DNA of 64,000 nt, from contig OZ360223.1 of the NCBI GenBank assembly GCA_977017645.1, forward strand, positions 80,662,001-80,726,000. Reading direction: 5' to 3'. The DNA is from Torpedo marmorata. Its lineage: Eukaryota. Positions 14,527-62,900 of this stretch are shown here, one piece after another. How positions within the stretch are numbered: position 1 is the first letter of the stretch; each line of letters starts with the position of its first letter. A model generated the notes under the pieces. That model was not told the origin of the DNA and made no database searches. It saw only the letters and a program-made list of their open reading frames with translations. The translations under genes and the position numbers were made by a program.

Positions 14527-14532
14527 AGAAAA

Positions 14533-36704: not shown

Positions 36705-36885
36705 AAAGTTCCTCTGTCTCCAACAAACGGCAGACCTTGTTAATAGGTCTGTTTAGAAAACCAGTCTTAGCTTTAATTCGCACTTGACGCACAAGTCCTC
36801 TTTGTCTTGAAAAGTCTCAATAATCTTTTTCAAGTAACCAGGAATTTCTTGAAGTTGAACCATCCATAACAATCACAATGTCTCT
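36705..36885 (-). pseudogene. Relic of BEL integrase C-terminus (DUF5641-like) after the ORF stop; also at about 21485-21665 and 60835-61015
   Basis: Copy 1 reads DIVIIMDNSTSRNSWLLGKIIETFQDKRGLVRQV...RPINKVCLLLETEE, the typical end of BEL pol. Confidence 0.75.
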
Positions 36886-36922
36886 TTAAAGTTCTTCCAT
36901 CTTCACAATCCGAGTCAAAACG

Positions 36923-39900
36923 TCAACCAGTAAACCTCAAATCCTCCTCAGACAAAATAGATACAGTTTTTCTTTTGAATTTAACACAAGGCACTTCTTC
37001 AGCACGTCGTTTCACTTTATTCCTTTCTTCAGTATTCCACTTCTCATGTGAAGAATTTAAACTCTTAGAATTAGAATATTTATCTGATCCTTTCGATTTT
37101 AAACAGGTCTGTTTAACCACTCTGGTTTCTATTGCTCTTTCCTGCAATTCTAAATCCAATTTTGCAACTTTCAATTCAGTCTCAGTTCTTTCTGAGAAAT
37201 TAATAATTTGATCTGAAGTTAAAATATCATGTGATACATTGATATTTCCATTGTCAATCCTGTTGCGACAAACTTGAAATTTTTTAATTTCTTCATCTTG
37301 TTTGTTACATATCTGCAATGCAATATCACATTCTTTCTGCATTGTTAATTGTTGAACATTCAATTTACATTCTTGATTGGTTTTTAAAGTCAACTGTTTT
37401 GTGTTATTAACCAATAACTTGTTCTCTTTCAAAACATTAATCTCTTCCTCCAACCTTTTACATTTTGATAATGCTGAATCTCTTTCCTCAATAACTGTAT
37501 TCATTTCTTCAGCAGTTATTCTTTTCTTCCGCTTTCTGACTTTGCGAGTTTTACTTACAATTAAATCTTTTTGTTTACTGTTTTCTTGATTATCTAATAT
37601 TTCCAATTCTCCTTTCAACATTTTATTCTCTGAATTCAATTGCATTAAATTATCATTCACATTATTCATTATTCCATCAGCACAATTTTCTGTGTTTTCC
37701 AGTTTTACATCACATTGCAATAATTCTTCATTAGCTTTGTCTGTTGTAATCTCTGAACTACAAAATCTACATTCAGATTTGTTTTCAGTCACTTGTTCTA
37801 TTCCTTTATTTGATTCAATTACACATGAATAATCAATAGTATTATTTGCAATATCTTCTAATACTTCACTTTCATCCATTTCTGACGAAATTGATTCCTT
37901 CAATGTTGTTTTAAATACCATTGATTTATTTTCACATTGATCTGTTTTCTTTTCTTCATAAGTAATTTTCTTATTCACGGTTTTTTGCTCTTCGCTTAAC
38001 TCTTCAACTTTCTCAACTGAAATTTTATTAATATTTATCGCTACCTGTTCCTGAGCAATATCATTATTTCTTTCCATTGGTCCATTGATTGCCCAACCAA
38101 GCATGGTTCTAATAGCGTAAGGTCCATTCCTTTTACTCTCTATTACTTCTTTTGGTACCAAAATCTTTGGCACATCTGAACCAATCAGCATTTCTATTTC
38201 AGAATTAATTTCAGGTAAATAAACCTTCCACAGATAAGCTAAATGATGAATATCACTTTGATGAGGAATATTTCCTTCGTTCACAGGCATAGTCTTCTGA
38301 GTATATACACTTGGAAGATCACAAAACCTTTTGTCATCCAATCCAGCAACCTCTAAGCCTGAAACAATGTTAGTTTCAACAACCTTTTCTTGTCCCATGG
38401 TTTTTAACATAATTCTTTATCTTTTTCCTTGAATATTAAGTTTATTCATTAGTCCTTCCGTGTAAAAAGATGCAGTGCTGCCTGGGTCTAGAAATGCATA
38501 TGTTTTTACTATTGCATCCCCTTTCTTGGCCTTGACTTGTACAGGTACTATTGAAAGTTTGCAGTTATTCACCCCGGCCCCAGTAAGACCACTTGTCTGA
38601 ACCGAGGTTATAACATTATTTTCTGTTGTTTCCTTTGTTTCTGTTTGCTCCTTTTCCAATTCCTTGTTTCTGTTATGGATATGCAAAATTCTAGGATGTT
38701 TCAAATTGCATATTTTACAATTAATTCGCTTCTCGCAGTTTTTACTGATGTGCCCTTTACACAGACAGCTAAAACATATTCCATTTTCCTTTAAGAAAGC
38801 GATCTTTTCCTTATGTTCCTTCTTTTCCAATCGTAAACACATTTCCAAAGCATGTCCACCTTTACAGAACAAACAACTCCTTTCATTAGGCAAACTTTCC
38901 TTTTCCTTATTTACTTTGTCATTTTCTTTACTTATAACTTGCACATTAGTAGCAAAAGTACTCCTTTTCACTTTCGGACTAGACTGTGAATTAGACTTTC
39001 TTACATCTTTGCCCATTGAATTATCTCTGGTATTTCCATATAGTGGATCCGTTTCAACATACACCTGTCGTTCAAGAAAATTTACCAAATCCTTTAAAGT
39101 AATTTTTCGACCGTAATTTACTTGTAAATCACAAGCCAAATTTCTCCATCTATCCCATACCTTGTAAGGTAATTTTTCTAAGATAATTCGCATATTACTA
39201 TGCACTTCAAGTTCACGAATATTATCGATTTCTTCCATAGCATTACAACATCCTCTTAAAAACAGAGTAAACTCTTGCAGAGCCTTTACATCATTTTGTT
39301 TTATTGATGTCCATTTAAGAGCTTTATCCATATAAGCTAAAGCAATTCGATGCTTGTTGCCAAAATATTGTTCCAATAAATCCTTAGCTTTGTCTAATCC
39401 TCTTCCTGAAGACATTTGTTTACAACTTTTAACCAGTTCTTTTGGATGTCCCTTTGTAAACATTTCCAAATAATAAAGACATTCATCACGATCTTGGCAT
39501 TTATCTTCAATATTGCGTTTGAAAGATCTCATAAATGATTGATATTGAAATGGATCACCATCAAAAGTTTGTATCTCTTTCTTGGGTAAAGAAGAGAGAG
39601 ACTGTAACTGAAACAATGATGCAGCAATTTCATTTTGTCTTTCCTTGGATGACAATACATTGCTCTGTTCACTGTCTCGTGTTGTAAGCAATGTATCTGG
39701 AAACCTTACTGGTGTAGTTTTTTCCATATTTCTGATGCTTGGCTTATATAACAAAGAATTTACTTCGTTCGATCGGACCCAAGCCGCAGCTTTGCTTTCA
39801 GATGTTACTAATGATACATGTGACTCGATACCAATATGCTCGTGAAAAGTTTGTCCTTGTATATGTAAGTTTTGTATCCTTGGTTCTAAAATATCTATCC

Positions 39901-40861
39901 TTTTGGTTGGTTTCTTTTCCTGTGACTCCTTTTTTAAATATGACCTTTTATTATCAGACAATTTAGATGATTTACTGCTAACACCAGATACCATTGAGCC
40001 TTCTATTGCTTTCTTTTCTGCCTTGGCAATAGCAATGTTTGCTTCCAGCTCCTGCAGTTCTTTTCTCTGTCTTAGCTGCTCCTTCTCTTGTCTTAGCTTC
40101 TCCTTTAGCTGCTCCTCCTTTTGTCTTAGCTGCTCCTTATTTTGTCTTAGCTGCTCCTCCTCTTGTCTTAGCCGCTCCTTTAGCTGCTTCTCATTTTGTC
40201 TTAGCTGCTCCTCCTCTTGTCTTAGCCGCTCCTTTAGCTGATTCTCATTTTGTCTTAGCTGCTCCTCCTCTTGTCTTAGCCGCTCCTTTAGCTGATTCTC
40301 ATTTTGTCTTAGCTGCTCCTCCTCTTGTTCTAAAATAAATTTATCCTTAAGCGTTTTTTGTTGTGCAAGAAGAGTGGCCAATTTAACATCAATCTTTGTA
40401 CGTGACGACGCAGAACTTGAAGTACGAGAAACTCTGGAGCTCGAACCAGAACTTCTTTTGCTTCTCCTGCTTTCAGCATTTGAGACACTGTCACTTGCTT
40501 GTATTTCGTCCTGCAGTTCATATGTTGTCTTCATACTTACCTCTTTATCCAATTCGAATTGTATATCCTTTGCATCTTCAACCAATTCAATTTCTTCCTC
40601 ATTTGGTGACACAATTTCAGCCATTTCCAAGTTATCTTCTTGTTCAAATAATGAAGCTGCCTCTTCATCCTTTGCCTGCTTCAATCTTTCGATAAGAGCC
40701 CTTTTATTTCCACTTATGTCCTTTTTCAGTCGCTTCAATTCTTCTTTAATATCCGCAACCTTCATGTCTTCAATACGTTGGTCCTCAACAGCAACATCAG
40801 CGGTTGCTGCGTCAGCTGCTGATAAATCAGTAGCTGCTGTATCAGTGGCTGCTGCGGCCAT
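36923..40861 (-). CDS. BEL copy 2 polyprotein (~1312 aa; single in-frame TAA at 38417): SAP, coiled coil, Gag, three Cys-His knuckles, aspartic protease, MIPOL1-like tail
   Basis: MKVADIKEELKRLKKDISGNKRALIERL (SAP-like); LPKKEIQTFDGDP (BEL Gag); CLFCKGGH, CFSCLCKGHISKNC, CKICNLKHPRILH; YAFLDPGSTAS; GPYAIRTMLGWAINGP; no RT motifs. Confidence 0.9.
40065..40330 (-). repeat. Coding tandem repeats (54-bp unit QEEEQLRQNENQLKERLR with 21/33-bp subunits) in BEL gag
   Basis: Repeated TTGTCTTAGCTGCTCC; a different unit arrangement occurs in copy 1 (about 24840-25100). Confidence 0.9.
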
Positions 40862-41940
40862 TTTACTCGTCTTGTTCCTCTTTCCTTCAAGCATACACAA
40901 CACTAGTCAAACAACAGTCCCCAATGGACCAGCGGCAGCAATTCCAATCTGTGTTCTTACTTGCTAAAGATACACAGAAGGAGTCCACAGACTTATGCCT
41001 ACCACTTCAAATGACTGTAATGTGTTGCAATCCACAAACGAGTTTCAACCACAACATCCGGCTCTAATATCACTGATTTTCCAAAAATGGTTTCTCCAAC
41101 GTATTTATAGGACACTTTACTATAAGATTTGAAGCTTTAAATCCCTCTCTGGCTGTTATTCATGGCAGATGGAAGTGGATTACAAACTGCCCCCAACTCG
41201 AGGCATCTCCAAAATGGCCACCAATTTATATCAGTCCAAAGCACCGAGAGTTTTTTCTATCTTCTTTCCTTCAAACTTCTGTTCCAAACAGCCAGCCCTT
41301 TATTGACTATAATTAACGGTGACTTCGCTCCACCAATAGTCACCTGGAGGCTAAGTGTGGTCCTTGCTTTTGACGCGTTTTAATTAATTTACTAACAAAG
41401 TCCAATATGTTCAAAACCTTTATTTTCACACATGACTTGCAGTAATCTTCAATGACTTTAATATAAACAGTTCTTGTAAACGATGTATGATGAGTTCCTT
41501 TAAATTATTCCTTAAACAATTCCAAAACGATATGAAACACTGTAGATGATGTTAAAGTTATAAAAACATTATAAAACGATATAAAACGGTCAATAAAGAT
41601 GTGGAGACCAGACTCACCCTCCTACATCTCTATCCTTTCTTTGTTCTCTCTCTCTAATGGCTCTGCGCATCCTACCCCGCGCATACTACAACTCCCAGCC
41701 TCCCACGCGCACAATGACGTCACTCCATACTGCGCATGCGCCCGTCGGCACTCCCGCGCATGCGCATATCAAAGAACGGGCCGACGGGCCACAGAACAAC
41801 GCAAGCGCTCCAAGGCCCGACGTGGCCTCGGAGCGCTCCGAGGACGGCCTGGCGAACAACGCGAGCGCTCCAAGGCCCGACCAGACATCGGAGCGCCGCA
41901 ACAACGGTAAGTTAAACGAGCCTACGGCTCTTACAAGGGT

Positions 41941-44055: not shown

Positions 44056-44751
44056 GTAACATACAAATTGTCAATTTTTCTTGTCTGCTCACAATGCATA
44101 AAAACCCAGCCATTTTCAGATTTTTTAGCCAGTAGGATTCACCGACAGATTAATTGTATTTTGAATTCATTGTCAAGAGACCCACAATATGTTGCATCCC
44201 ACTGTTTAAACTTTGCCATTCTCCATTATGACTCGCTGAATAAGGTGAATTCAACTGGCAGTGCAGTCAATGTCTTTTGTTGAATGCAGCCCTTTGAAAA
44301 ATAATTCAAACAAAAAGCATTGCAAATGAAGGCACTAATTCCAGAGGTATTAGCATGTTACTGCCATATTGTTCACTCACATCAACCAGTGAATCAAGGG
44401 AGCCAGATTTTTCAGCAAAGAATTATGCCATTTGTTTATTCAAAAAATGTTGAGAGTTAGACCCACCTTCTCCACACTGGTTCAAATCTTTCTGACTTGG
44501 TTGGGCTGTCACTTCCAATCATTTATGGAAGCAAATGAGTCTCATCACCAGCTGTGAAATTCACAGCTCAATTGCTGCATTGTATTGATTCTGTAATTTA
44601 ATGATGAAAGGGATCCATTTAAAAAAAAATTAAATGGAGAACACCCAAATGTGCTCGAAAAAAAACGTAGATAACAACTGAACATTAGGCCAGCTCCAGA
44701 ATACTGAGGCTTGCAGTTTTGCAGCATTTTCTCATCTTTAAATACACACAA

Positions 44752-44859
44752 TCAGTGAAAAATGTTCAGCTTTTGATTTTCTTCTTTCAAGGCCACATTT
44801 TCCTTTATCAGTTCTTCTCTGGCTACTAAGTGCTTAAGTACCACTTCACCAACTGCAAT
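44752..44859 (-). CDS. NEDD1-like gene, terminal coding exon (IAVGEVVLKHLVAREELIKENVALKEENQKLNIFH*)
   Basis: Acceptor TTGCTTATTTTCAG, phase 0, stop TGA; resembles the NEDD1 end (as recalled: NEMHSLLERYSVNEGLVAEIERLREENKRLRAHF*); candidate AATAAA at 44435-44440. Confidence 0.75.
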   Translation of the reverse strand: MAVGEVVLKHLVAREELIKENVALKEENQKLNIFH

Positions 44860-45139
44860 CTGAAAATAAGCAAATGGTACTCTGCATTATCAAATAACTG
44901 CTCAACGTTCCAGAGACCCCACTCAAGTCAGTCTGGTTCAATCATAATGACTGGTGGAATAAGCTGTCACAGCAGCTCATTGCACACAAATATCATTCTA
45001 AGAAATGGCTTTTATTTCAAATAATAATCCTGAAATGACAGAAAAACAAATAGAACTGGGGATTTTGCATAAATGTTATTCCTCTCAAATGAGAGGTCAT
45101 TCGCAAGCTTCAGCACATAGTTAATGCTCAGAGAATTTT

Positions 45140-47065
45140 CCAAAAGTTGGCAGATGGAATTTAATCCCTACAAATGCAAGATGATATGTTTGTTTTGGCA
45201 CAATATTTACAGTAAATGATAGGGCACTGAAGAACAGAGGGGCTTTGCGATTCACTCCCTAGTTACCCTGAAATTGGGAACACAGGTAGATGGGGTGATG
45301 AAGTAGGCATATGGCATGCTTGCTTTCATGGATCTGGGACAGAATATAAAATCTGGGACATCATGTGGCAACTTAACACATTGATTGGAGAACACTGAGT
45401 ATTAGGTGCAGTTCTGGTTGTCACACTTAGAAGGATGTGCTTGTGCTGGGGAGAGTGATGGAGAGATTCACCAGGATATTGCCTGGACCAGAGGACTTCA
45501 GTTACATGGTGAGATTGGATAAGATGGATCCATTTTCCCTGGAATGAAGGACACTGAAGGGTGACGTGAAAGAACTAAATATCATAACAGGTGTAGAAAG
45601 TCAAAAATCTTTATTTTCCTGTGGTTAAGGTATCAAAAACAAGAGAGCATTGTTTAAGTTTTTGAGGTGAAAAACAAAGATATCTGGAATTTACTGACAA
45701 GGGAGGTGGTAGAGTCAGATATAATTATTAGGTTTGAGAGACATTTAGACTGGCAGTTAAATTGACAAGGCACATCAGGATACAGACTGCACACAGGCAA
45801 ACAGGATGAGTATGGATTGTGTTACGAACTAACAAACCTTGCTAGTACTAACAAAGAAACAGCAATGGAATATGCACCAGACAATGGTAAATTCAAAAAT
45901 AGTTTTTATTTAAACTATTAATAACATAACATATCTTACTTATCTCTAAACTTAACTCTAACTTAAACCCCACTATGCGCAAATGTAAATGCGTGTGTGT
46001 TAAAGTCCAAACCAGTTCAGTTCAAACTTAATTCTGAAAAAGTCAATTTTCAAAGTCCAGTTTCCAACTTCTTTTGTTTTTCTTCAGGATCCCTTTAAAC
46101 TGTGATTCAGAAATTATCATAAAGCAAGAATGGAATATTCAATTTCTTTCAAACTCACACATCTTCTGATGAGTTGTCTTTCAGAGATAGTCTTCATACG
46201 AATGTTCACAAGGTTCCCCCTATCTTGTTAGGGTTACGGAACTGTAATCTTCAAAATGATTTCTTAATCAGGAGTAACATACGCTGATGTCCTCTTTTCT
46301 TAGAAACAATTTGAAAAGTGGTCTTACTTATTTTAAAAGCCACATCTGGTGTACCTCCTATGATAAGGATAATACACAGAACAGCACCTCCTCACTCAGA
46401 GATTCACTGTTCAGACTCAATTCTGCCTTTCCAGAATATTAAAGTTCTTCAAACTTTATATCTTCGTCTTACCGAAGCGTCAGAGCCTTCTCCAGTCTGG
46501 TTCCATTTGCTTCTAAATGTCTCTCTGCTTTCATTATATATTTCTGACATCATGTGACATTACATCACTACAACTTTAGTTTCATTTTCAGAAAGCATTA
46601 CCTCATGCCTTTCTTCAAAATCACTTACATCTGACCTCATCTCTGTTCCAATAGGTTTAAGTGATTACGACTCCGAATAGTCTGGCATATGTCACTCAAA
46701 TGGCACTTGAGTTTGCAACAGCTGCTATCATAAGGCTTTTAAAAACCACTTCAGTTTTTAAATCACTTAAATGTTCTTAAGCAACCACTTCAGATTTTAT
46801 GACTTTTGACTTTCACAGACGCATCGACTCCGAAAGACTCCCAGCTGCAATTTCTTTCTCTCAGTAATAGTTTTTTTCTGCAAATGTGCTGTGACCTGTG
46901 TGTGACCCTGTACCAGCCCACAACTAACCTTACTAAGATATCTAATTCTATAACTTAACTTTAAATATTAATATTAACATTAACACATTCGTCACAATTG
47001 GTAGCGTAGGTCAGCATGGATGTGGTGGGCCAAACGGCTGGTTTTCAAGCTGAACAACTCTATGA
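45140..47065 (+). mobile_element. Decayed CR1 3' part, interrupted by the solo LTR at 45820-46996
   Basis: KWQMEFNPYKCK-like remnant and VQFW motif; CR1 tail GGGCCAAACGGC at about 47025. Confidence 0.65.
45820..46996 (-). mobile_element. Solo LTR, copy A (1177 bp)
   Basis: TGTTACG...CGTCACA termini, 4-bp TSD ATTG; highly similar second copy at 55758-57064. Confidence 0.85.
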
Positions 47066-47074
47066 TGATTTGTA

Positions 47075-47553
47075 AAGGGCTTGTTGTTGTTGCTGTTCTT
47101 CCATTTCCACCTCCTCTTCCTCGCTGTCAGAGCTAGGGAGACCCGATTCCTCTTCTCCTGACGTTGTAGACTCAGCTGTGAGTTCTGACGTTCCGCGCAT
47201 GCGCGTTGCACTTCCGGGTTCTTCCTCAGCGCCATCTTTCCGATGTCGCAGGTGCGCACCGCCAGCAGAGGTCCCTGCCAGCGATCCACTCGCCTCGGGA
47301 TCGGTTTGTACGCTAGCTCCCTGCTGATGAGGCCTTGTATCCTTTCCAGTCTTCTCCTTACGTTGGGCTAGAGGTAAGGCTGCGGCTGTTTTTCTTTTTT
47401 TTCGGAGGCATTTGGAGTGTTTTTCTCGTGTTCAGATGTTTTTAAAAAAATTTTAAATTTTCTAAAACTTTGTTTATTTGATACTTTTTTTGAGATTCCC
47501 AGGAGGGTCAGGTTCCTACGTCCTAACCCTACGGCATCACGTGACGTCCCCCC
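47075..47553 (-). mobile_element. Probable 5' end of an L1 (5' UTR plus ORF1 N-terminus), lacking the rest
   Basis: Starts GGGGGGACGTCACGTGATG; ATG at 47411 (MPPKKK..., 1-nt slip in an A-run), then an open ~105-codon low-complexity frame ending SDSEEEEVEMEEQQQQQ; CpG-rich. Family assignment is from resemblance only. Confidence 0.55.
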
Positions 47554-49325
47554 GACCAGATACACGTCGATCCCAGTGAAATTTCTATCTTGGTACAATA
47601 TAGTGTTAGTCATTTCAAATAATGCAATTGTTCCTGCATGCAAAATCTTTAAAATATATTCAAGGTGTTAGCCCTAAATTTATAAATTTAAATTTAATAA
47701 TTTTTTAAATTTTAAAATTTAAATAATGCAATTAAATTTAAATAATGCAATTGTTCCTGCATGCAAAATCTTCATTAAAATATATTCAAGGTGCTAGCCC
47801 TGTGGTAAGACTTCAGAATTTTGTTTGAATTGAAGGACATTTGCATCATCTTCCAAGATTTAAGAATACATTACTCAGAATGGCAATCAATGGTCCACAA
47901 AGGAAATGACTAGGAATATGCCATTTAACCTCAAGTCTATTCAGGCATTTTATCAAATAAGATGATTTTACATCAAATTCATTTATCTGTTTTTGTGTTC
48001 TACATCCCTTCAGAACTCAAATAAATTGATCAGTTTTATAAATGTTAGATGACCCTCATAACAGTCGTACAGGCAGCATTTAAAATTCCTCTATTGGAGG
48101 AAATACCAACAAGTTTCATCATTATCATTTTGAATACCCCAATTAGATTGCCCAAGATCCACTGAATTCAAGTGAGCACCAAATTCAGGCAACCCAAACT
48201 CAATCTTTAAACATTGGTATAATTTCAGTGAGATTGCACTGTAGTTCTTATAAAGCTAACGGATAAAATTTTGGGCTCTGCAGTGAAAGAACAGTGTTCA
48301 TCATTCACTGTGAAGAATTGCATTTTCTGATTTTGTCCAGTGACCCTCAATTGCTCTGTGCAACTCGCTGATTGCAGGGAAATCTAAAAAGAATTTTTTA
48401 ACAAAGTACAAAGAATCCCTAGCAAGCCAAGTAGAATGGATGCCAGGAAGTGTTGACAAAAAGTGACATTTAAAATCATAGATATAATGAAAGAAAACTA
48501 AAATGAAATTGAAAAGGGAGATATTAAAGAACAGTGCAAAATAAAATAAAGTAAAGTTCAGTCCCTCTCAATTTACAATGCTAATTAATTTGAGGAAATA
48601 AAACTCAATTTTTAAAAATTCAATTTGCAAAGCTAGCAGAATCTTTTGCCAAGATCACATTACTAAAATATTCCTCAGTTCTGAATGAAGCAGCCCTTGG
48701 CTTTTATTGTCTTGAGAAAGAAACTACCAGACAGGTTCTCACACATTCATGTTACTGCATAAAAGGTACACATGCAAGTGCTATACCAATGGTAAATGCT
48801 CATAACCTCACCATTCTACATCAACACGGATTTCGCAGGATTCATCTTTTGTCCAAAGCTCTGAACAATTTTGGGGCTTTGCATGAAAACTCATTTAATG
48901 ACAAAATTTTGATACTTTTCTAGATACTTTGTGGTATTCAAATCCCTTAAAAGATACATTATCCTTAACATCTACCTACCAAAAGAAAGCCAACGAAACC
49001 TTATGCACACCTGAGTGAATGGTGAGGGGAAATAAACTGATCTACTTTAAACAGCTGGCAAGCTACCTACAATATTTTCAAATCAATTAACCATTTTGAA
49101 AAAAAAAAATTAAAAATGTCCCTTTGCACTTCTCATTGTTAAGACACTCCAACAATTAGCTCCAACCAGGTCTTGCTTTTACTGCACCTTCAGTTCATCG
49201 GAATGAATCCCTTCATCCCATCAGATAAACAAGTACAGAGAACAATGTGCCTGGACATCTAACCAAATGACGGTAGCAAATTATCAGCACAATACCATTT
49301 CAAAGAACAAGAATTATCAGCATAC

Positions 49326-49392
49326 CTGTTGATTTTGAAATTCCTGGATCATGGCCAGCTGAAGTCCAACAACTTCTCGATGTTGCAACTCA
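49326..49392 (-). CDS. NEDD1-like gene, 67-nt penultimate exon (ELQHREVVGLQLAMIQEFQNQQ)
   Basis: AAACAG acceptor, CAG|GTATGC donor, phase 2 to 0; aligns to NEDD1 EACHRDIVNLQVEMIKQFHMQL (recalled). Confidence 0.8.
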
Positions 49393-50654
49393 CTGTTTAT
49401 ATGCAAGAAATAACCAGAATAGAAACTTTGCTCAATGGAAATTCTTAAGTAGATTGATAATACACATTGTAATGGAGGACAGGTAAAACGTCAGGGGACT
49501 CGTGAGCAAAGCATCAAAGGTGCAATGAGGGGATGGAATTGGCAAAAAGGTACACATGATCAATTGTGGAATACAACAGCTCAGAATTTGCAGCTGCAAA
49601 GTCTATGTAGGTTCTTCAGTATTAATACTTAATTAGGCAAATGACAAGGAGGTAGGCCATCAGGGTGACAAACTTTATCAGAGACAGTACTTTGAACTAA
49701 CAGTGTCTGGAACAAGAATGCATCAAAAGTCATACCACTAGCACTGCTTCACCTTCAAAGACAACATCCACACTAACCAACTATACACAACTTAAATTCA
49801 CTCAATCTTTTGATCTTCTCATCTACAAACTCTTCAGTGGGAGGTCTACCAGACATCTCTGAAATGTCCATTCTAGGCACAGTTAATTGCAATGGATGAT
49901 TTCTCCAGAAAGGCTTAAAATGCACCAGGTCTTGCATCCCATGTGCAATTATTGCTTCAACACGATTGTCATTATATCTACGAATATACTGTATTACACA
50001 TTAAGAAACTATGGTATTAATATTTTAAACACCTAATTGGTCACATACAACTTAATACAGGGCTGATCTCTCCTTACTATGATAGCAATTACAATGAAGA
50101 TTCCTCGTTACATTGAGCTCAATCACAAGTCTCCACATCTCCATCTCTGTGCCTTTACCTGCATATCATTCTGCATTCCAATGCAATTATGTTTCCTACA
50201 GATACCAGTCATTTCCTCTTTCCTGCTGTTCCTTTTGAAGTCAGAAGATTATCTCCTCTGACAATGCATTTCTGGATTATTTCCCAGCCTATGAACTCTT
50301 TCATGACCGCTTATAATCCACCTTTGTCACATCAGGTAACATCAGTCCAACACAGCATTGCCAGAGCTATTGAACAACTTCCGTATTGCAAAGAATTTCT
50401 TTCTTGACAGATCCAAATTAATTTGTGCTTGATTCAGATGGCTTAGAAATTTTATAAACAACCATCCGGTAGACACCAACCCCTTCCCTAAATGCTCCGC
50501 AGACTCGGCCTGGCCACCATTTTGTCTACACCCAATTTGAGAGATACAACAGCACATCGTGATGAACCTTCAGTTGCTCACTTAACTTGCACATTGGTGT
50601 AATTGCCCCAAAACTGGTTCTATCATGCTGTTCAATCACATTGAATTTTGAGAT

Positions 50655-50960
50655 TCAGGCCCTTTGAATCCACGAGTCCATTTGACCAATTAACCTAACC
50701 CTGTACATCTTTGGAACTTGGGCGGAAACTGGGGCACCCAGAGGAAACCCACGAAGTCACAGGGAGAACGTACAAACACCTTACAGATTGGGGTGGAATC
50801 GAACCCCAGTCATAGCATGAAGAAGCACTCAGGCTCGAAACATCGGTTAAATATCTTTACCTCCGATGGACACAGCGAGACCTGCTGAGTTCCTCTAGCA
50901 TTTCTGTGTTTCACTGGCACTGTAATAGCATTGCACTAACTCCTACACAAACGGAGGCAC
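50655..50960 (-). mobile_element. V-SINE-like element with a ~100-bp repeat nested at about 50815-50913
   Basis: Similar to the SINE at 6401-6651 (GGAAACCCACG, GTACAAAC.CCTTACAGA, B-box-like GGAATCGAACC). Confidence 0.65.
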
Positions 50961-51446
50961 CCCATTCTATTCCTGATTACTCTTCCAGAGTCAGTGAGAT
51001 TTGTGAAGACTCCTATTATTCTGAGAAAGCCTCCTGAAAGGCTCTTCACTTCAGCTATTCATAAAATACCTCCCAGCACCAGATGCAAAATATTCACCCT
51101 CTCCCCCATTTCCTCCAGGACATGCAAACCAAAGCTATTTTTCTGGTCAGTCCTCAACCTTGTCGTGGGCTCTTTTGGTACTTCTGTAATCAACATTTTT
51201 TTTCTCCACTACCTCCATGCCATTATGCTTCATTTGTTGACCAACAGCAAAACAGATATTTGCCCAGATTTAAGTCAGCACTGCAAATCCACAACTCGTG
51301 AAGAACACACTCAATAACCTTTTTCTGTATGCAAGGCACGTTCTTTCTTAATATTGTCAATTCTTATTGCAAACATCTTCTGGAGATGGCAAGTTACCAT
51401 TCAACAATACAAGATTTCACCACAGACCTTGCCTTCATCATCCCAT

Positions 51447-51765
51447 CAGGGCTGGATAGAGTGAATGTGGAGAAGAGGTTTCCTGCCATGGGAGAGTACA
51501 AGATCAGAGGGCACAGCCTCAAAATAAAAGCCAGAGGATGGTGAATCTCTGGAATTCATTGCCACAGACTGCTGTGGAGGCCAGATTACTGGGTATATTT
51601 AAAGTGGAGGTTGATAGGTTCTTGATTTGTATGGGTGTCGAAGGTTATGGGTAAAATGCAGGACAATGGAGTTGAGATGAAAAATACATCAGCCATGATT
51701 TGAATAGCAGAGCAGTCTCAATGGGCTGAATGGCCTAATTCTGCTCCTACGTCTTATGATTTTAT
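51447..51765 (+). mobile_element. CR1 3' end fragment
   Basis: GLDRVNVEKRFP...RGHSLKIK peptide; GGGCTGAATGGCCTAATTCTGCTCCTA tail. Confidence 0.8.
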
Positions 51766-52303
51766 AATCTTTTCTCAATATCCATAGCACAAAACATTGA
51801 CATCTTCAAATTGTTGATCTGCCTCAACTCAGCAAGGTCTTGTACTTGACTGCTGAGCTCCACTTTCCCCTTGCACCATGTCTCATCAGGTGGTTTGTCA
51901 ACGAATCCCACCTGCAAAAATGCCTGTAGGTCACTGCACATTCCTCGTTCACCACACGTGCCCTTTGGAAAGGGCTGTCCACTCTCGCTGCAAACCTATC
52001 CCAGCCTATACTTCCTGGACAGTTCTATGGCAACCACTGAACTCTCAGCAACCATCACTATTTGGTTGTTGCAGAATTCCCAATGTCTGCAGCCTGTACA
52101 CAACTTGTTGCCTTTGAAGGCCATGTCCAGTAGTCTGTTTGGATGGAACCAGTCCAGCAAAAAGTGCAAATATCTGCTGGATTTCTTCATTTCCCAAAGC
52201 CAAGAACCTTTCAATAAAATATTTCCTCATTCCAAGGGATTTAATCTAATCTGCCTCATTATAAATCCCTCATTTGTATGCACATTACACGAGATTAACA
52301 AAC

Positions 52304-52451
52304 CTGAACTCCTCCAGGGTATCTTTCAGCATGTTTTCCATTAACTGTACCACTGCCCAAGGGATTGCATGTTCTTTTTCCCTCTCTTTGTCTGGTTGGA
52401 GAGAAGGGCAACTCGGTGATTTGGTCTCAGTCCTGGGATTGGTTTCTTGTT
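52304..52451 (-). CDS. NEDD1-like gene, 148-nt exon (EQETNPRTETKSPSCPSLQPDKEREKEHAIPWAVVQLMENMLKDTLEEF)
   Basis: Pyrimidine tract plus CTACAG acceptor, CAG|GTTTGT donor, phase 1 to 2, in frame with the 67-nt exon; VQLMENMLKDTLEEF resembles NEDD1 IRFIQNMIQETLDDF (recalled). Confidence 0.8.
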
Positions 52452-53404
52452 CTGTAGCAAAGAGAAATATGCAAACAGAAATAGATTTTAATCGATAGCC
52501 ATTTGTTGAAATCACTTGCAATGATCACCAGCATCACATATTACGATTGACTAAACACAACTCAAACAGAAAAACACTTCTTTCTATTTTATTACGAAGG
52601 AGGTAAACAAGTCAAGAAAAGGCTTAATTGTTCAATTTTTTTTAATGGAAAACACCCTTGCGGGATATCTGAAATAAAAACAGAAAATACTAGGAACATT
52701 TAACAGGTCAGAAAGCATCTGCAGAAGGAGAAGTTGTTGTTTCAGGTCTGGGACCTGTCATCAAAACTGGGACTTATTTCCCTTTGCAATTCCCAACAAT
52801 AACATTCACAAACAAAACAAGACAAAGCATTGTCCATAAGCTTTGATCCAACTTCTCTCGCTTCACACCCAATACAAAATTAAAAAAATATTGAAAGGAA
52901 CCATTAAATTTGGCAGTACAACATTGCAAGCCTGCAGTTTGAAGATATTCTGACACTCAGGTGTTTTAAAACAAAAAAAAATAAAACCACCTGCACTGTC
53001 ACAGGAAAGTTAGGTGACAGTTGGTTAGCTGATGACATTACTTGTGGGTTGTCAGAGGCTCAGTGTGCAGAACCTCATGTGATCAACAGTACTTGTGCTG
53101 GAAGTGACCACCTTCCTTCATTCTGCATTCCTGATGGGTTTTTCTCCCCAAATCGGAAATACTAATTCACCATCAGTTTTTCTTTCCCTTTGATTAAAAA
53201 CTTCCTTCAGTTCCACAAGCACAAAGTCTATGAATGATTTTTATCATGGGACCACAACTTCATACCACGAGATGCTCTTTAATATTATAATGGTCATACA
53301 TCTTCATAGCTTGAACTCAGTTGCAAATACACAGGAAAAGAATGTTATGGTGACTGGTTTTGAGTAGTGCATTCTTGAAGTTACTGAAGCCTTGTAATCA
53401 CCTG

Positions 53405-55624
53405 AGTGCAGGTTATTATAATATGCCATTTAGTCAGGCAATTAGACAAGGTGAAATACTAAGCATGCATTTTTTATTAATGAGTTAAATAAGCAAGGAT
53501 AAATTAGTTGACGTGATTCTCCGTGTTACTTGAAAAACATGGTTTTATCATTGTTATTGAGTATAAATAACTTGACTGTTTGAAGGTGGATTTTAAAAAA
53601 GCAACAGGGAGCAAGCACTCTTATGTCTGAAGATGTTTATATCTAAAAAATGGGAGAAACCAGCAAGACTGGTGGAATCTTTAGCAAACAGGATTGTTAA
53701 GTTTCATGTTTTCATTTCTGTATTTTAACTTGTGCTTTAAACTTTAAAATAGCAATGACCCAATATTTCTGTTAAAATATATGAGTGCTTTTATCATAAA
53801 ACTATCTATTCTTTCTTTCCACCAGAGTTTGGATGGGGAAACATTTTGAGAACGAGAAAAATACATCACGTTAATTTGTGTCATTTGTTGCTTTCTGTGT
53901 ACAAGAAATTTGTGCCAATAGGTGTACATAGCGACTTGCATGTGACAACTATTTTCCTAATCATGAACAATTTTGGAAGACCAAGGCCACACAAACTTCA
54001 ATTCTCAGTCTCCAACGCAATCCCTTTCTCTGCCAATTGTCTAAAATGGAACCAAACATTCTGCAACTTCAATGTTATTTAACTCAAAAAGGATAGAGTG
54101 TTGACCTGAAACTTGACAATCCCTCACTGCCCTGGCCCCTCCGTCATCCCCACAGATGATGCTCAACCCATTGAGTTTCCCCAACACTTTGGTTTTTGGC
54201 TCAGATTCCAGAATCTACAGTTTCTCATGTTTCCTTTAAAGAACTTGATCTTAACCTGGACCTGCCATTGAATTATTTGCCATCACTCATGCTGCGCCTC
54301 AGCTGCCATCATCCTCACTCACACCCTCATTACCTCAAGATTTGACTGCTAGCCTGTCTCCTTCCTGATCAGGCACTGCAACCTTGAGTTCATCTGAAAG
54401 CTGTTCACTATTGTGCTTAAAGACCAACGCTGGCTTAAATTTAAAACTATATTTTTCAAATCCTTCCCTGGACTTATTCTTACCTCTGCATCCATTCGCT
54501 TCCAGTCTTTATCTTTGTAGAAATCTGTATTCCGCCAATTTGGCCACACGAGGATCCCTATAATTAATCTTTCCACTTCAAACAGACGGAATTGCCTCAT
54601 CCATAAACTCAGGAATTCATCAGAAAATGTCTATAACATTGCTCTTTGAAAATAGTTCTTTATCATCTATCTTAATATTTTCTCATGATTCTTAAGGTCA
54701 AAATTTGATTGATAGTATTCTTATAATCGAACTTGAAATGTTTTGCAACATTGATCTGTATGAATATGTACACAGGGCCCACATACAAATGCTCATTGCA
54801 CTCTGTTAAGTAATACTAATAAAGTAATTGGATAACAAGATGTAATAGTTGCTGTATACATTTATCTCCACTTGCTAACTCAACCAAAATAGCAGCATTG
54901 AAAACAAATGCAATCTGAGATAGCATGCATAATTAATAGATTATATGTTTTCAAAATAATTTATTTGTAGCTTTCTTGGATGTTCCAATAAATTCAACCA
55001 TATTCTGTGACTGCCGCATATTAAAAAAATGTGGTTTCTGTTCTCTTTGCCAAGGACAGAATGAACTGTATTCAGCATTTACATCTCAGTGGGGTGTTAA
55101 AGTTGACAGTTTCAATTTTAATCCTCAATTAAAAAGTTGGAGAGATCATTCAGGCTTGAGGCATACACTAATAATCAGTGGAATCCCAAAGTGGTTGCAA
55201 AATAAGTCAGTCTTTTAAAAACAGCGACTAGAAGTACAGGATGTTGAAATTAACATTGCCTTTTAAAGAACTTGTGTGCTCCAGTCAATCAATCAATACT
55301 CCATACAAGCCATTGCTTGCCAGGTGTGTCCTTGCTGCGATTTTGATTAACAGTTCAACAGACAAGTGTTTGAAATTGATCTCGAAGACAAGTGCATGCA
55401 GATTACTGCAATGTAGCACAATTCCAAAAGTACATTTCTTAAAACACCTTCAGTCAAGTTATTTATACTCAATAACAATGATAAAACCATGTTTTTCAAG
55501 TAACACGGAGAATCACGTCAACTAATTTATCCTTGCTTATTTAACTCATTAATAAAAAATGCATGCTTAGTATTTCACCTTGTCTAATTGCCTGACTAAA
55601 TGGCATATTATAATAACCTGCACT
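53405..55624. repeat. Perfect 174-bp inverted repeat (53405-53578 / 55451-55624) around a 1.87-kb spacer
   Basis: Base-by-base reverse-complement comparison found no mismatch. Confidence 0.92.
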
Positions 55625-55757
55625 TAGAAAGGAAGTTGATTGATCCTGACACGTACTTTGGTAGAAGTTTGTTATATAATTTTGTTTTATGGTCAGGAAA
55701 ATTTTGAACTTTGAAGAGCACCCTCTTCAATGAAAGCTATTTTTCCAGTGATCCAAG

Positions 55758-57064
55758 TATTACGAACATAGACTACAAACAACAGTACCAAATATTCTTG
55801 TGCACATCATCAATAAAACAAACCAAAGGGACACAAAGCAGTTTGTTAGAAATGTAAATAATGTGGTCTTGTATTCACCAAGTATATAACCTATTGACAG
55901 AAACCTTGCTAGTACTAACAAAGAAACAGCAATGGAATATGCACCAGACAATGGTAAATTCAAAAATAGTTTTTATTTAAACTATTAATAACATAACATA
56001 TCTTACTTATCTCTAAACTTAACTCTAACTTAAACTCCACTATGCGCAAATGTAAATGTGTGTGTTAAAGTCCAAACTAGTTCAGCTTAAACTTAAATCT
56101 GAAAAAGTCAATTTTTAAAGTCCAGTTTCCAACTTCTTTTGTTTTTCTTCGGGATTCCTTTAAATTGTGATTCAGAAATTATTATAAAGCAAGAATGGAA
56201 TATTCAATTTCTTTCAAACTCACACATCTTTTGATGAGTTGTCTTTCAGAGATAGTCTTCATACGAGTGTTCACAAGGTTCCCCCTATCTTGTTAGGGTT
56301 ACGGAACTGTAATCTTCAAAATGATTTCTTAATCAGGAGTAACATACGCTGATGTCCTCTTTTCTTAGAAAAGAATTTGAAAAGTGGTCTTACTTATTTT
56401 AAAAGCCACATATGGTGTATCTCCTATGATAAGGATAATATACAGAACAGCACCTCCTCACTCAGAGATTCACTGTTCAGACTCAATTCTGCCTTTCCAG
56501 AATATTAAAGTTCTTCAGACTTCATATCTTCGTTTTTCCGAAGTGTCAGAGTTTTTTCCAGTCTGGTTCAATCTGCTTCTAAAATCCTCTCTGCTTTCAT
56601 TATATATTTCTGACATCATGTGACATTACATCACCACAATTATAGTTTCATTTTCAGAAAGCATTACCTCATACCTTTCTTCAGAAATCACTTACATCTG
56701 ACCTTATCTCTGTTCCAAGAGGTTTAAGTGATTACGACTCCGAATAGTCTGGCATATGTCACTCAAATGGCACTCGAGTTTGTAACAGCTGCTATCATAA
56801 GGCTTTTAAAAACCACTTCAGTTTTTTAAATCACTTAAATGTTTTTAAGCAACCACTTCAGGTTTTATGGCTTTTGACTTTCATAGACTTGTCGACTCCG
56901 AAAACTCCCAGCTGCAATTTCTTTCTCTCAGTAATAGTTTTTTTTCTGCAAATGTGCCGTGACCTGTGTGTGACCCTGTACCAGCCCACAAATAACCTTA
57001 CTAAGATATCTAATTCTATAACTTAACTTTAAATATTAATATTAACATTAACACATCCGTCACA
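55758..57064 (-). mobile_element. Solo LTR, copy B (1307 bp)
   Basis: Colinear with 45820-46996 with about 130 extra bp near the left end; termini TATTACG...CGTCACA; TSD not clean (CAAG/CATT). Confidence 0.8.
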
Positions 57065-57180
57065 CATTGCATGAGCATAATTACAATTGTCTACCTTTAC
57101 TGTTGTCTGCACATTGATTATTATGCTATAGCATCAGTGCAGTCAGAATTAAGCAAAATGCAGATCAAAGCACAACTTAC

Positions 57181-57265
57181 CAATCAATTCCAGTTCCGAA
57201 TTACAGCAGTGCAAATTTTGTGCTTGGGCACATTTCTCTGCTGTTAAACAGGTAGCTTCACTGAA
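57181..57265 (-). CDS. Candidate upstream exon of the NEDD1-like gene (FSEATCLTAEKCAQAQNLHCCNSELELI)
   Basis: Strong donor G|GTAAGT in phase 1, matching the next exon; acceptor CTCTTCCAG (alternative at 57240); open frame but no recognised homology. Confidence 0.45.
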
Positions 57266-59961
57266 CTGGAAGAGATATTATAAATTAGTTGGAAAACCTT
57301 CAGCATTCCTTTAAGATATACTAAGCATGTTACCAAGAAACCACAATAAGGGATGATTTCTGCGTTGCCAAGTAAATAACTAGCTATAAATTAACAATTT
57401 AAAAAAGTACATTAAGGTGGAAGATATTTCTTTCTTTCATTCCATAATTAGAATGTGAAAGGCAGCGCAGCAAGTCGACTCTGTAGCCAAGGCAATTGCG
57501 GCATTTAAGTGCAAATAAAAAATTCAAAGGAAAACTATGAAGTAAAATAGAGACATAGTTGGCATACATTAAATTAGAGATGAAAGCACAGATGAAGAGT
57601 TGGTAGCTGACTTGGGATAGTGGGTTAAGTGACTTTACTGTTCAGATATTTCAATTTTTTTTTTAAGACAACAACTTCTGATTGTTCATTCTCAAAATAA
57701 TTTTTGAGATTTGGTCAATGCTCAAAATCATATTTAGTCATAACTTCCCATAACTGATCTTTTAAAGGTGGTTGTTAGCCCTCCCCTTGAATCACTGGTG
57801 TACTATGGTAATGATGCTGCTGGGATAGCAAATTTCATGTTGACAAACTTTTGCCCACTGAATAATTACATGTAGAAAGAAGTGAAGCAACATCACAGCT
57901 CACTGGGGTTGACAAACTCTGTTCATAAGAATTCTGCAAGAGGGGAAATCTCAATGATGGATACCATTCTGACAGGACTTGAGCGACTCGATCCTGGGCG
58001 AATGTTTCTGCTGGTTTTATGGAGTGGGGGTGGGTGGGGTGGGGTGGGGGGGGGTGGTGAAGGTGCATTCTAGACCAGAGCTCTCAATCTCAGGAAATTT
58101 CTTCAAAGTGAGTGGTGAACCTGCAGAACTCCACACACAAGACTCTGGTGGCCAAGTCATTGAATACATTTACAAGATTGATTGATTTCTCGGCACAATG
58201 AGTACAAAGGGACCAAGGGGAGCAGTGGGAGACCTGGAATATGGTATTGAGACAATGGATCAACCATGATAATATTGAATAGCATGACAGTCTGGAACAG
58301 CCTACTTACTGCACCTACTTTGCTGTGTTTCTCCCTCACATACTAAAACACTTCGATGCACTTCATAATAGAACTATGGAAAGAGGTCAGCTTGGCATGA
58401 TGAGGAACAATTCTTGTTCTTCAATAAGAGCTATGACAACAGCTTGCCTTCTGTTGCATCTTTCACAAAGATACTACTGGCATGCAACAAAACAAATTTT
58501 AACACAAGGAGAAATTAGGAAAATTGACCCAAAGCGAAATTAAAGATACCGGCATGAGAAGAGATTGAGAACAAGAATTAGGTTTGCAGAATCAAGAACT
58601 CAGTCAAAAGGCCATGATGTCTGCTTTTTAACCCCAGGACCTTCTGCATTTTGAATACCACTGTTCAACTTATTTCCACGATTTTGTCTGGCATTCCATT
58701 CCAAAACCCAATCATTTGGAAAATAAAATTGTATCATATCTGGGTTTTTAATGTTAGTCATCTTAAATCCACAACCAACTCTTTAACCTTCGCTAACAGG
58801 CTTCTCTCTATTTGGTCTAATCCCTTAACATTCTTAAAAATCTCAATCAAATCTCCTGAGCTTTGATGGTTCAAAAGTAAAAACTTTGTCTACCTACACA
58901 ACTATCTTTCAAAACCATTCTCGTAATTTTTTTGTTATCGTTTCCAATATCCTCATGCACTACCTCAGTAAAGCAGACAAAATACTTATCTTGGGCCAAC
59001 GTGCAGATTTTAGCACAACTTCCTTGCTTTTATATTCTCTGACTCAGTTTATCATGCCCAAGATCCAATATATTCCATTAACAGTTTTGTGAGATTTACC
59101 AGGAAGAGATTGAGAAGAGATAAACCAGATGTTGCCTTGATGAGAGACGAGATGAGCTACAAAGAGGGGTGAGACAAACTTGGGCTGTTTTCTCCAGAGC
59201 ACTGGAGGCCAAGAAGAGACACGATAGAAGTTAATAAAATAATGAGAGCCATTGACAGGAAAGACAGTCAGAAGCTTTTTCCCCAGGCGAAACTGTCACA
59301 CAGTTGAGAACAGACATTTAAGGCAAGGGAGGGCAAGTGCGTGCTTTTTGTAAAACCACACACAAAGTGGGAGGTGCCTAGAACAGGCTGCCAGGAGTAG
59401 TTGTGGAAGCAGATACAATGGTAGCATTTGAGGCTTCTCAATAGATGCACATAACGCAGGGATTAGAGGGATACACATCAGCAAGCAGCAAAATTTAGTT
59501 TAACTTGCGCATTATGGTTGGGGCAGACAGAAATACCAGCAAATGCTTTGAGTTTTTAGGTACCTAATAAAGTTGTAACATTTCGCTAGAAGGGTGTTTA
59601 ATCCAAACGATCAACTCAGTTCCTCTTCCCACAGATGTGGCCTGACCTACTGTGTATTTCTTGCATTTGGAATCAGAATTTATTTTCATGAACATGTGTC
59701 ACAAAATTCATTGTTTTGCGGCAGCATTGTTGTGCATTATAGGTACAAAAATTGCAATAAGTTACATTCCATAAATATACCATTAAAAAATAAATCAAAT
59801 AGTGCAAAAGAAGAGAAAAAAAGGTGAGGTAGTATGTGGTTCATTGTCCATTCAGATATCTGAGGTGGAGGAGAAGAAGCTGTTTTAGTACCATTAAGTG
59901 TTTATTTTTTTTATATTTAGACTTCCAATAATATCTGCAGGAAATTTTATTTCACAGCTTG

Positions 59962-62900
59962 TATAAGTAACGGTGACTTCGCTCCACCAATAGTCACCTG
60001 GAGGCTAAGTGTGGTCCTTGCTTTTGACGCGTTTTAATTAATTTACTAACAAAGTCCAATATGTTCAAAAACCTTTATTTTCACACATGACTTGCAGTAA
60101 TCTTCAATGACTTTAATATAAACAGTTCTTGTAAACGATGTATGATGAGTTCCTTTAAATAATTCTTTAAACAATTCCAAAACGATATGAAAACACTGTA
60201 GAACGATGTAAAAGTTATAAAACGATATAAAACGGTCAATAAAGATGTGGAGACCAGACTCACCCTCCATACATCTTTTCCTTTCCTTCTCTATCTCTCT
60301 CTAATGGCTCTGCGCATCCTACCCCGCGCATACTACAACTCCCAGCCTCCCACGCGCACAATGACGTCACTCCATACTGCGCATGCGCCCGTCGGCACTC
60401 CCGCGCATGCGCATATCAAAGAACGGGCCGATGACGGCCCACAGAACAACGCAAGCGCTCCAAGGCCCGACGTGGCGCTCCGAGGACGGCCCAGCGAACA
60501 ACGCGAGCGCTCAATGGCCCGACGTGGCCTAGGAGCGCTCCGAGGACGGCCCACCGAACTACGCGAGCGCTCCAAGGCCCGACGAGACATCGGAGCGCCG
60601 CAACAACGGTAAGTTAACGAGCCTACGGCTCTTACACCGGCCCCTAATTATTATAATTAGACGTAATGTCTTGAATAATAATTACACTATAAATAATAAT
60701 AACCATAACATTCAAAACAATACAAATCTTCTTTCTTCCTTCTTCATAAATCTAGAGTTTACCATAACTCTGATTCAACAAAAGTCTGTAACCTGTGAAA
60801 TATACAATAACAAATAAAGTCAGTTTATATTTATCAAAGTTCCTCTGTCTCCAACAAAAGACAGACCTGGTTAATAGGTCTGTTTAGAAAACCAGTCTTA
60901 GCTTTAATTCGCACTTGACGCACAAGTCCTCTTTGTCTTGAAAAGTCTCAATAATCTTTTCCAAGTAACCAGGAATTTCTTGAAGTTGAACCATCCATAA
61001 CAATCACAATGTCTCTTTAAAGTTCTTCCATCTTCACAATCCGAGTCAAAACGTTAACCAGTAAACCTCAAATCATCCTCAGATAAAATAGATACAGTTT
61101 TTCTTTTGAATTTAACACAAGGCACTTCTTCAGCACGTCGTTTCACTTTATTCCTTTCTTCAGTATTCCACTTCTCATGTGAAGAATTTAAACTCTTAGA
61201 ATTAGAATTTGAATATTTATCTGATTCTTTCGATTTTAAACAGGTCTGTTTAACCACTCTGGTTTCTATGGCTCTTTCCTGCAATTCTAAATCCAATTTT
61301 GCAACTTTCAATTCAGTCTCAGCTCCTTCTGAGAAATTAATAATTTGATCTGAAGTCAAAATATCATATAGTACATTGATATTTCTATTGTCAATCCTGT
61401 CGCGACAAACTTGAAATTTTTTTATTTCTTCATCTTGTTTGTTACATTTCTGCAATGCAATATCACATTCTTTCTGCATTGTTAATTGTTGAACATTCAA
61501 TTTACATTCTTGATTGGTTTTTAAAGTCAACTGTTTTGTGTTATTAACCAATAACTTGTTCTCTTTTAAAACATTAATCTCTTCCTCCAACCTTTTACAT
61601 TTTGATAATGCTGAATCTCTTTCTTCGATAACTGTATTCATTTCTTCAGCAGTTATTCTTTTCTTCCGCTTTCTGACTTTGCGAGTTTTACTTACAATTA
61701 AATCTTTCTGTTTACTGTTTTCTTGATTATCTAATATTTCCAATTCCCCTTTCAACATTTTGTTCTCTGGATTCAATTGCATTGAATTATCATTCACATT
61801 ATTCTTTATTCCATCAGCACAATTTTCTGTGTTTTCCAGTTTTACATCACATTGTAATATTTCTTCATTAGCTTTGTCTGTTGTAATCTCTGAACTACAA
61901 AATCTACATTCAGATTTGTTTTCAGTCACTTGTTTTATTCCTGTATCTGATTCAATTACACATGAATGATCAATAGTATTATTTGCAACATCTTTTAATA
62001 CTTCACTTTCATCCTCTAACACTTCACTTTCATCCATTTCTGACGAAATTAATTCCTTCAATGTTGTTTTAAATACCATTGATTTATTTTCACATTGATC
62101 TGTTTTCTTTTCTTCATAAGTGATTTTCTTATTCACGGTTTTTTGCTCTTCTCTTAACTCTTCAACTTTCTCAATTGAAATTTTATTAACATTTATCGAT
62201 ACCTGTGCCTGAGCAATATCATTATTTCTTTCCATTGGTCCATTGATTGCCCAACCAAGTATGGTTCTAATAGCGTAAGGTCCATTCCTTTTACTTTCTA
62301 TTACTTCTTTTGGTACCAAAACCTTTGGCACATCTGAACCAATCAGCATTTCTATCTCAGAATTAATTTCAGGTAAATAAACCTTCCACAGATAAGCTAA
62401 ATGATGGATATCACTTTGATGAGGAATATTTCCTTCGTTCACAGGCATAGTCTTCTGAGTATATACACTTGGAAGATCACAAAATTTTTTGTCATCCAAT
62501 CCAGCAACCTCTAAGCCTGAAACAATGTTAGTTTCAACAAACTTTTCTTGTCCCATGGTTTTTAACATAATTCTTGATTTTCTTCCTTGAATATTAAGTT
62601 TATTCATTAGTCCTTCCGTGCAAAAAGATGCAGTGCTACTTGGGTCTAGAAATGCATATGTTTTTACTATTGCATCCCCTTTCTTGGCCTTAACTTGTAC
62701 AGGCACTATTGAAAGTTTGCAGTTATTCACCCCGGCCCCAGTAAGACCACTTGTCTGAACCGAGGTTATAACATTATTTTCTGTTGTTTCCTTTGTTTCT
62801 GTTTGCTCCTTTTCCAATTCCTTGTTTCTGTTATGGACATGCAAAATTTTAGGATGTTTAAAATTGCATATGTCACAATTAATTTGCTTCTCGCAGTTTT

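Follow-up and report, generated by a model that had tools for sequence, protein, structure and literature searches.

To our knowledge, NEDD1 (GCP-WD) is treated as a single-copy gene in vertebrates. In two reports, its C-terminus is described as a four-helix bundle to which four MZT1:GCP3 modules bind and which docks on the ring complex of gamma-tubulin (gamma-TuRC), and mutation of E598, L600, D602, F603, E605, V612, L614, V616, I619, F622 and M629, in sets, cuts gamma-TuRC binding (PMC11903878, PMC12094035). The second report adds that deletion of the distal helix, or 'fishtail', lowers gamma-tubulin binding, and it names S405/S411 as kinase sites in the linker and S637 as a Plk1 site (PMC12094035). 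Another paper counts 19 ohnologues that cartilaginous fish retain and bony vertebrates have lost, with wnt6b and cspg5 as named examples (PMC10115646).

Here we describe a gene of the NEDD1 family that reaches into a stretch of 64,000 nucleotides ('the window') of the 6.2-Gb genome of Torpedo marmorata, namely positions 80662001-80726000 of contig OZ360223.1 (C22). The window gene is an intact protein-coding NEDD1 paralogue with a WD40 propeller, a disordered linker and a short and a long C-terminal helix. The best explanation for all observations is, with a probability of roughly 0.7, that it is a paralogue retained in cartilaginous fish, which originated in the first vertebrate whole-genome duplication and serves as a second gamma-TuRC adaptor.

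Gene structure

The orthologue-guided model comprises 13 coding exons over 94 kb of the minus strand and has an open frame of 557 codons. The four coding exons in the window are exons 10-13. Coordinates below 64000 are window positions and eight-digit coordinates are positions on C22.

80800311-80800446, minus strand: coding exon 1, with ATG, 136 nt, WD40 domain
80789460-80789554, minus strand: coding exon 2, 95 nt, WD40 domain
80786353-80786469, minus strand: coding exon 3, 117 nt, WD40 domain
80779898-80780038, minus strand: coding exon 4, 141 nt, WD40 domain
80777277-80777506, minus strand: coding exon 5, 230 nt, WD40 domain
80769947-80770148, minus strand: coding exon 6, 202 nt, WD40 domain
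80742115-80742220, minus strand: coding exon 7, 106 nt, linker
80740393-80740503, minus strand: coding exon 8, 111 nt, linker with the S405/S411 motif
80728310-80728461, minus strand: coding exon 9, linker; orthologue-matched start preceded by TG, in-phase AG start at 80728437
57266-64000, minus strand: 3' portion of intron 9, with coding exons 1-9 outside the window
57181-57265, minus strand: coding exon 10, 85 nt, part of the linker; in frame and orthologue-matched, with a weak acceptor
52304-52451, minus strand: coding exon 11, 148 nt, end of the linker and short helix (equivalents of E598, L600, D602 and F603)
49326-49392, minus strand: coding exon 12, 67 nt, first part of the long helix, with the counterparts of E605, V612, L614, V616, I619 and F622
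44752-44859, minus strand: coding part of the last exon, 13, 108 nt including the stop, distal helix or fishtail
44435-44440, minus strand: AATAAA, candidate polyadenylation signal about 310 nt past the stop

An earlier note on this DNA, made from the letters alone, had joined exons 11-13 into one minus-strand frame. Each of the three has an AG acceptor, exons 11 and 12 have a GT donor, and the joined exons form a single open frame that reproduces the peptide quoted there. Exon 10 sets the end coordinate of that note, though it was not listed in it. The expectation that any WD40 exons would lie beyond the 64 kb proved correct, as six were found on C22, 44-74 kb past the window end. The first WD40-like exons (117, 141 and 202 nt) came from a splice-site scan of 150 kb upstream, and the full model was then guided by orthologues. 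Intron 1 (80789555-80800310) is an AT-AC intron with the donor ATATCCTT, that is, a minor-spliceosome intron, and an AT-AC intron with the same donor occupies the same place in the NEDD1 gene found on contig C57 of this genome.

Likeness to NEDD1 and a separate NEDD1 gene

A profile was made from the C-terminal helices of 11 canonical NEDD1 proteins, with the Torpedo marmorata genome excluded. The spliced 77-residue helix scored 50.7 bits against it and the best of 2000 shuffled sequences 13.2, so the match exceeds what chance would give. Single exons searched against Pfam and PDB gave no NEDD1 match because they are too short and divergent, and a word-seeded protein search with exon 11 yielded four candidates, none of which scored. 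The exon 6 peptide found NEDD1 chains as its best PDB matches (E 2.5e-17 and 1e-15; next 1e-8), as did a skate orthologue. A structure predicted for the bamboo-shark orthologue P0178 showed a propeller at residues 6-299, a disordered linker and helices at 484-500 and 503-558, with helix confidence (predicted local distance difference test, pLDDT) of 55-82 and a seven-bladed propeller as top fold match; as 28 of the 38 rows of its alignment are canonical NEDD1, this model leans toward NEDD1. A prediction from seven paralogue rows alone (mean pLDDT 38) was discarded, and a four-copy complex of the skate orthologue helix, for which the alignment was not used, scored 0.01.

Three protein searches of the genome, two of them with a stricter first look, placed series of NEDD1-type exons on C22 and C57 and on no other contig. 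The C57 gene is a complete NEDD1 of 13 coding exons with phases identical to those of the paralogue, and its last three exons measure 148, 67 and 105 nt. Its helix is 72% identical to that of a primate NEDD1, compared with 32% for the window gene. A LAP2-type LEM exon (LAP2/TMPO) lies about 150 kb from it and an ELK-type Ets exon 1.6 Mb away; we take LAP2/TMPO and ELK3 to be the neighbours of NEDD1 on human 12q23. Grouping with bony-vertebrate NEDD1 and adjacency to TMPO and ELK3, the marks of an orthologue of human NEDD1, are both seen in the C57 gene and neither in the window gene. The suspicion that the window holds a paralogue rather than the orthologue was therefore well founded, and the proposed check for a separate conserved NEDD1 gave a positive answer, complete with the expected neighbours.

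Compared with vertebrate NEDD1 (PDB 9QVM/9QVN human, 9I8M/9I8N Xenopus, 9PZM), the paralogue has the same propeller-linker-two-helix layout, the S405/S411 linker motif and the binding residues in kind, and it shares the 13-exon phases and the AT-AC first intron with the C57 gene. Its identity to a primate NEDD1 is 47% in the WD40 domain and 32% in the helix. Differences include a linker about 100 residues shorter (158-186 amino acids versus 263-297), a one-residue helix insertion near 629-630, with exon 13 one residue longer than its NEDD1 equivalent, the loss of Y636/S637, the location on another chromosome and the occurrence, as found, only in cartilaginous fish.

Orthologues and previous annotation

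Orthologues of the paralogue were found in databases for 11 species of sharks, rays and chimaera (Callorhinchus, Heptranchias, Heterodontus, two Scyliorhinus, two Chiloscyllium, Rhincodon, Stegostoma, Pristis and Rhinoraja), for example XP_038666638, XP_043564531, XP_048462514, XP_067854365, XP_078269883, XP_051873612 and V9KN66. Most are labelled 'protein NEDD1-like' automatically by the NCBI and UniRef pipelines, and several of the models are truncated. The window gene nests among them, together with sawfish and skate (100/100). Several species carry X1-X3 isoform models, which suggests transcript support. Among the sequencing runs listed for the last exon and 3' UTR of the window gene none was from RNA, a result that has no bearing on expression. 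When the best 120 of 157 profile matches were assessed, the top nine were orthologues of the paralogue and the other 111 scored as canonical NEDD1, the named proteins listed among the latter being from birds, mammals, gecko and chimaera. A profile-free search of cluster representatives was dominated by repeat-rich WD40 proteins; among ids P0024-P0170, only a chimaera paralogue and a lamprey NEDD1 fitted the helix profile, and no invertebrate outgroup was obtained.

The claim that the gene is undescribed holds in part. No study of the paralogue was found in the literature searched, outside of which lay subscription journals, and 'nedd1' occurred neither in the 12 supplementary files searched, of 24, of the whale-shark paper nor in the readable parts of the skate-paper supplement. 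Within the portions of text that the search covered, 'nedd1-like' appeared in a newt lens study only. The database entries, on the other hand, already exist for 11 cartilaginous fishes, so that this old paralogue is machine-annotated, yet apparently unstudied. The list of 19 ohnologues in PMC10115646, or catshark expression data, may already include it.

Age and origin of the duplication

Two unrooted trees were built, each with one lamprey row and no invertebrate outgroup. The first used 21 rows and all columns, with the truncated Heterodontus and the near copy from S. torazame excluded; the second used 13 of 23 rows and the two well-aligned domains. In the 21-row tree, a 100/100 branch set the paralogues apart, and a group of cartilaginous and bony NEDD1 that left them out had support of 99/97 (21 rows) and 98/97 (13 rows). 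An approximately unbiased (AU) test rejected a grouping of the paralogues with cartilaginous NEDD1 (p 0.0036 with 21 rows, 0.0094 with 13). Judged by these sequence trees, the duplication is older than the split between cartilaginous and bony vertebrates, and much of the low identity, which the earlier note had read as a sign of fast evolution, is probably a matter of great age, the helix rate described below accounting for the part of that reading that stands.

The surroundings of the gene bear on how the duplication arose. The nearest recognisable neighbours in 614 kb, detected in an open-frame scan, were a DYRK2/3-type kinase gene, 149 kb upstream, and, at 229 kb upstream, a fascin-like frame without introns; a splice-site exon scan of the same 614 kb gave no recognisable neighbour.

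C22 80949919-80951514, minus strand: third DYRK2/DYRK3-type kinase gene of the genome, with 71% identity to the C48 copy and 67% to the C45 copy
C22 81029086-81030546, plus strand: complete intronless fascin-like frame of 487 codons; closest relative in the genome on C50, at most 60% identical and with introns

Of the three DYRK2/3-type genes in the genome (C22, C48 and C45), the one on C22 is probably another duplicate retained from the early genome duplications. The fascin-like frame may be an old retrocopy. Further markers on C22 are a PPAR-gamma-type gene at 42.6 Mb, a FOXP gene at 68.3 Mb and a TMCC gene at 89.3 Mb, with DYRK2/3 at 80.95 Mb, and the same arm also bears two WNT genes and an ELK gene; TMCC and ELK copies occur on C22, C57 and C45. 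The WNT genes are presumably WNT5 and WNT7, and the FOXP gene FOXP1; we take PPAR-gamma, WNT and FOXP to be markers of human 3p and chicken 12. Searches for G-protein-coupled receptors and homeodomains revealed no marker around 80 Mb of C22. Since other markers (RXR, NR5A) are found from 107 Mb onward, C22 is probably a fused chromosome. Linkage group E/O consists of 1-alpha, corresponding to chicken 12, 2-alpha, corresponding to two skate chromosomes, and 2-beta, corresponding to chicken 26 (PMC10115646, SI Table 3), and this table fits C22 as 1-alpha, C48 and C57 as 2-alpha and C45 as 2-beta. The window gene is bracketed by FOXP, DYRK2/3 and TMCC, as expected of a first-duplication ohnologue on a sister segment. 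These observations lead us to infer that the paralogue is the NEDD1 copy from the first vertebrate whole-genome duplication, on a segment of chicken-12 type, that was lost in bony vertebrates. That duplication is dated to the vertebrate stem, in the early Cambrian (PMC10927551). The distribution, the tree and the paralogous-segment pattern of the gene are the same as those of the 19 ohnologues (PMC10115646); unlike the examples named there, it is a core cell-division adaptor.

A later origin is the strongest competing explanation, albeit an improbable one: a single-gene DNA duplication in the jawed-vertebrate or cartilaginous stem, after which the copy was relocated, evolved fast and was drawn to lamprey by long-branch attraction. 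The strong acceleration of the helix (26 versus 3 and 28 versus 2 lineage-specific changes), the fact that every orthologue found among the matches listed is from cartilaginous fish, and the warning of long branches meeting in the 21-row tree would all suit such an event, as would the finding, in flanks of about 200 kb to one side and 275 kb to the other, of no second gene from the immediate neighbourhood of the C57 NEDD1. The AU test, however, still rejected a union of the paralogues with cartilaginous NEDD1 when applied to the two-domain alignment, for which no long-branch warning was given, and the WD40 domain is not significantly accelerated against lamprey. Moreover, an insertion at random would rarely end up 149 kb from a DYRK2/3 copy on a sister segment that belongs to the same ancestral linkage group.

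Evolutionary rate, binding residues and possible function

Between Torpedo marmorata and chimaera, 44 of 77 helix sites differ in the paralogue versus 8 of 76 in NEDD1 (7.6-fold, p 7e-10), while in the WD40 domain the counts are 116 of 305 and 83 of 304 (1.5-fold, p 0.006). In relative-rate tests against lamprey, the helix had 26 versus 3 changes (p 1.5e-5; further test p 9e-7) and the WD40 domain 63 versus 44 (p 0.08; further test p 0.06), the latter not being significant in either test. The description of the gene as fast-evolving accordingly applies to the C-terminal helix and lacks significance for the WD40 domain.

The residues tested by mutation were mapped via a 660-residue primate NEDD1, which fits the numbering of the papers at all 11 positions. 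With residue classes of our own grouping, 11 of 11 tested residues are kept in kind in the window gene, seven of them identical; elsewhere in the helix this is so for 30 of 65 positions (p 6e-4). Averaged across nine paralogue rows, the corresponding values are 0.96 and 0.56. Of the 11 paralogue rows, 10 retain S405/S411. None of the nine helix-bearing rows retains Y636 or the Plk1 site S637, and the S377 region aligns poorly. One MZT1 locus and five GCP loci were found in the genome, so there is no duplicated partner complex and both adaptors would therefore share one nucleator.

Judging from its residues, the most likely role of the paralogue is that of a second gamma-TuRC adaptor whose regulation is altered. 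Its helix would form a four-chain bundle, alone or mixed with NEDD1, this bundle would bind MZT1:GCP3 modules, and the paralogue would tether the single kind of gamma-TuRC of the cell to sites chosen by its own propeller. The shorter linker, the remodelled fishtail and the absence of S637 point to regulation of another kind, probably in a restricted cell type. A more specific and tentative proposal, for which we see perhaps some room, is that this first-duplication adaptor has a job of its own. It would grip the shared nucleator by a conserved four-helix core, possibly as bundles mixed with NEDD1, and, since its Plk1 site is missing, its fishtail rebuilt and its tether short, it would target or damp nucleation at an organising centre that is non-mitotic or belongs to the germ line.

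Slightly less likely than a later duplication is that the gene is real and old, but that its helix is no longer a productive gamma-TuRC binder (through relaxed selection, decay or use as a decoy), with only the propeller strongly constrained. The ray-to-chimaera helix identity of 43%, compared with 90% for NEDD1, could be read this way, and so could the lost Y636/S637 and the insertion near 629-630 (deletion of the fishtail lowers gamma-tubulin binding; PMC12094035), as well as the non-canonical exon 9 acceptor and two truncated database models. Such a history is hard to reconcile with a frame that is open through the last exon of the window gene and a helix that, among chimaera, sharks and rays, has its full length in 9 of 11 rows, and the conservation of the tested interface residues so far above background would not be expected under relaxed selection. 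That the window gene is merely a divergent version of the only, orthologous NEDD1, the exon sizes and phases of which it equals, is refuted by the complete, conserved C57 gene, which has the expected neighbours and, in the tree, joins the NEDD1 of chimaera and bony vertebrates. A retrocopy was ruled out by the 12 introns in common with NEDD1, and a pseudogene, as the leading explanation, by the open frame and the orthologues in 11 species.

Several observations nevertheless weigh against a retained first-duplication copy that acts as a second adaptor. The nearest ohnologue-type neighbour, DYRK, pairs with C48 and not with C57, where NEDD1 lies. The 21-row tree carried the long-branch warning, and trees without an invertebrate outgroup give no proof of a first-duplication origin. 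No bony-vertebrate paralogue occurred among the best 120 of the 157 matches, which came from a word-seeded search and listed no named protein from ray-finned fish, amphibians or lungfish, so the absence from bony vertebrates is weakly tested. The classes behind 'kept in kind' are our own, and three of the 11 tested sites vary in some orthologues: D602 is lysine in three of nine helix-bearing rows and V612 is serine in chimaera, for instance. Two of the 11 paralogue rows (Pristis, 414 amino acids; Heterodontus, 329) are without most or all of the helix, which may reflect annotation failure or decay. Finally, the orthologue-matched acceptor of exon 9 reads TG instead of AG, a feature of the window copy compared with the database entries. 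The gene model uses the in-phase AG 24 nt downstream. The residues directly after the TG still match the orthologues. A whale-shark isoform is without exons 9 and 10 together, and this joint skipping preserves the frame. A shifted acceptor, a rare TG acceptor, a recent mutation, an assembly error or joint skipping of exons 9 and 10 may account for the TG.

Repeats and retroelements in the window

Three copies of one long terminal repeat (LTR) retroelement family lie at about 20697-26722, 35869-41935 and 59962-64000. The terminal repeats of the first two are 98-99% alike, and the third copy sits in intron 9 of the NEDD1 paralogue. A frame of this family (38417-40906, minus strand) contains a SAP domain and DUF1759, which we take to be a BEL/Pao-type gag. 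Long retroelement frames are also present at 8279-11164 (plus strand), 12001-15606 (minus strand) and 4840-6066 (minus strand), comprising a 961-codon reverse-transcriptase frame, a Gypsy-like set of protease, reverse transcriptase, RNase H and integrase, and another reverse-transcriptase fragment. A 1.17-kb repeat, 95% identical between copies, occurs in intron 12 (45834-47000) and intron 10 (55901-57069) of the paralogue.

Significance

With the paralogue, a core cell-division gene joins the few duplicates retained only in cartilaginous fish, a pattern which in itself is known. Having been separate for so long, it shows which helix positions are needed for binding, as these are kept, and which carry regulation, as these are lost or changed, and it offers ready-made chimaeras with which the roles of the fishtail, of S637 and of tether length can be addressed. 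If the adaptor does have a job of its own, it would represent a natural separation-of-function variant of NEDD1.

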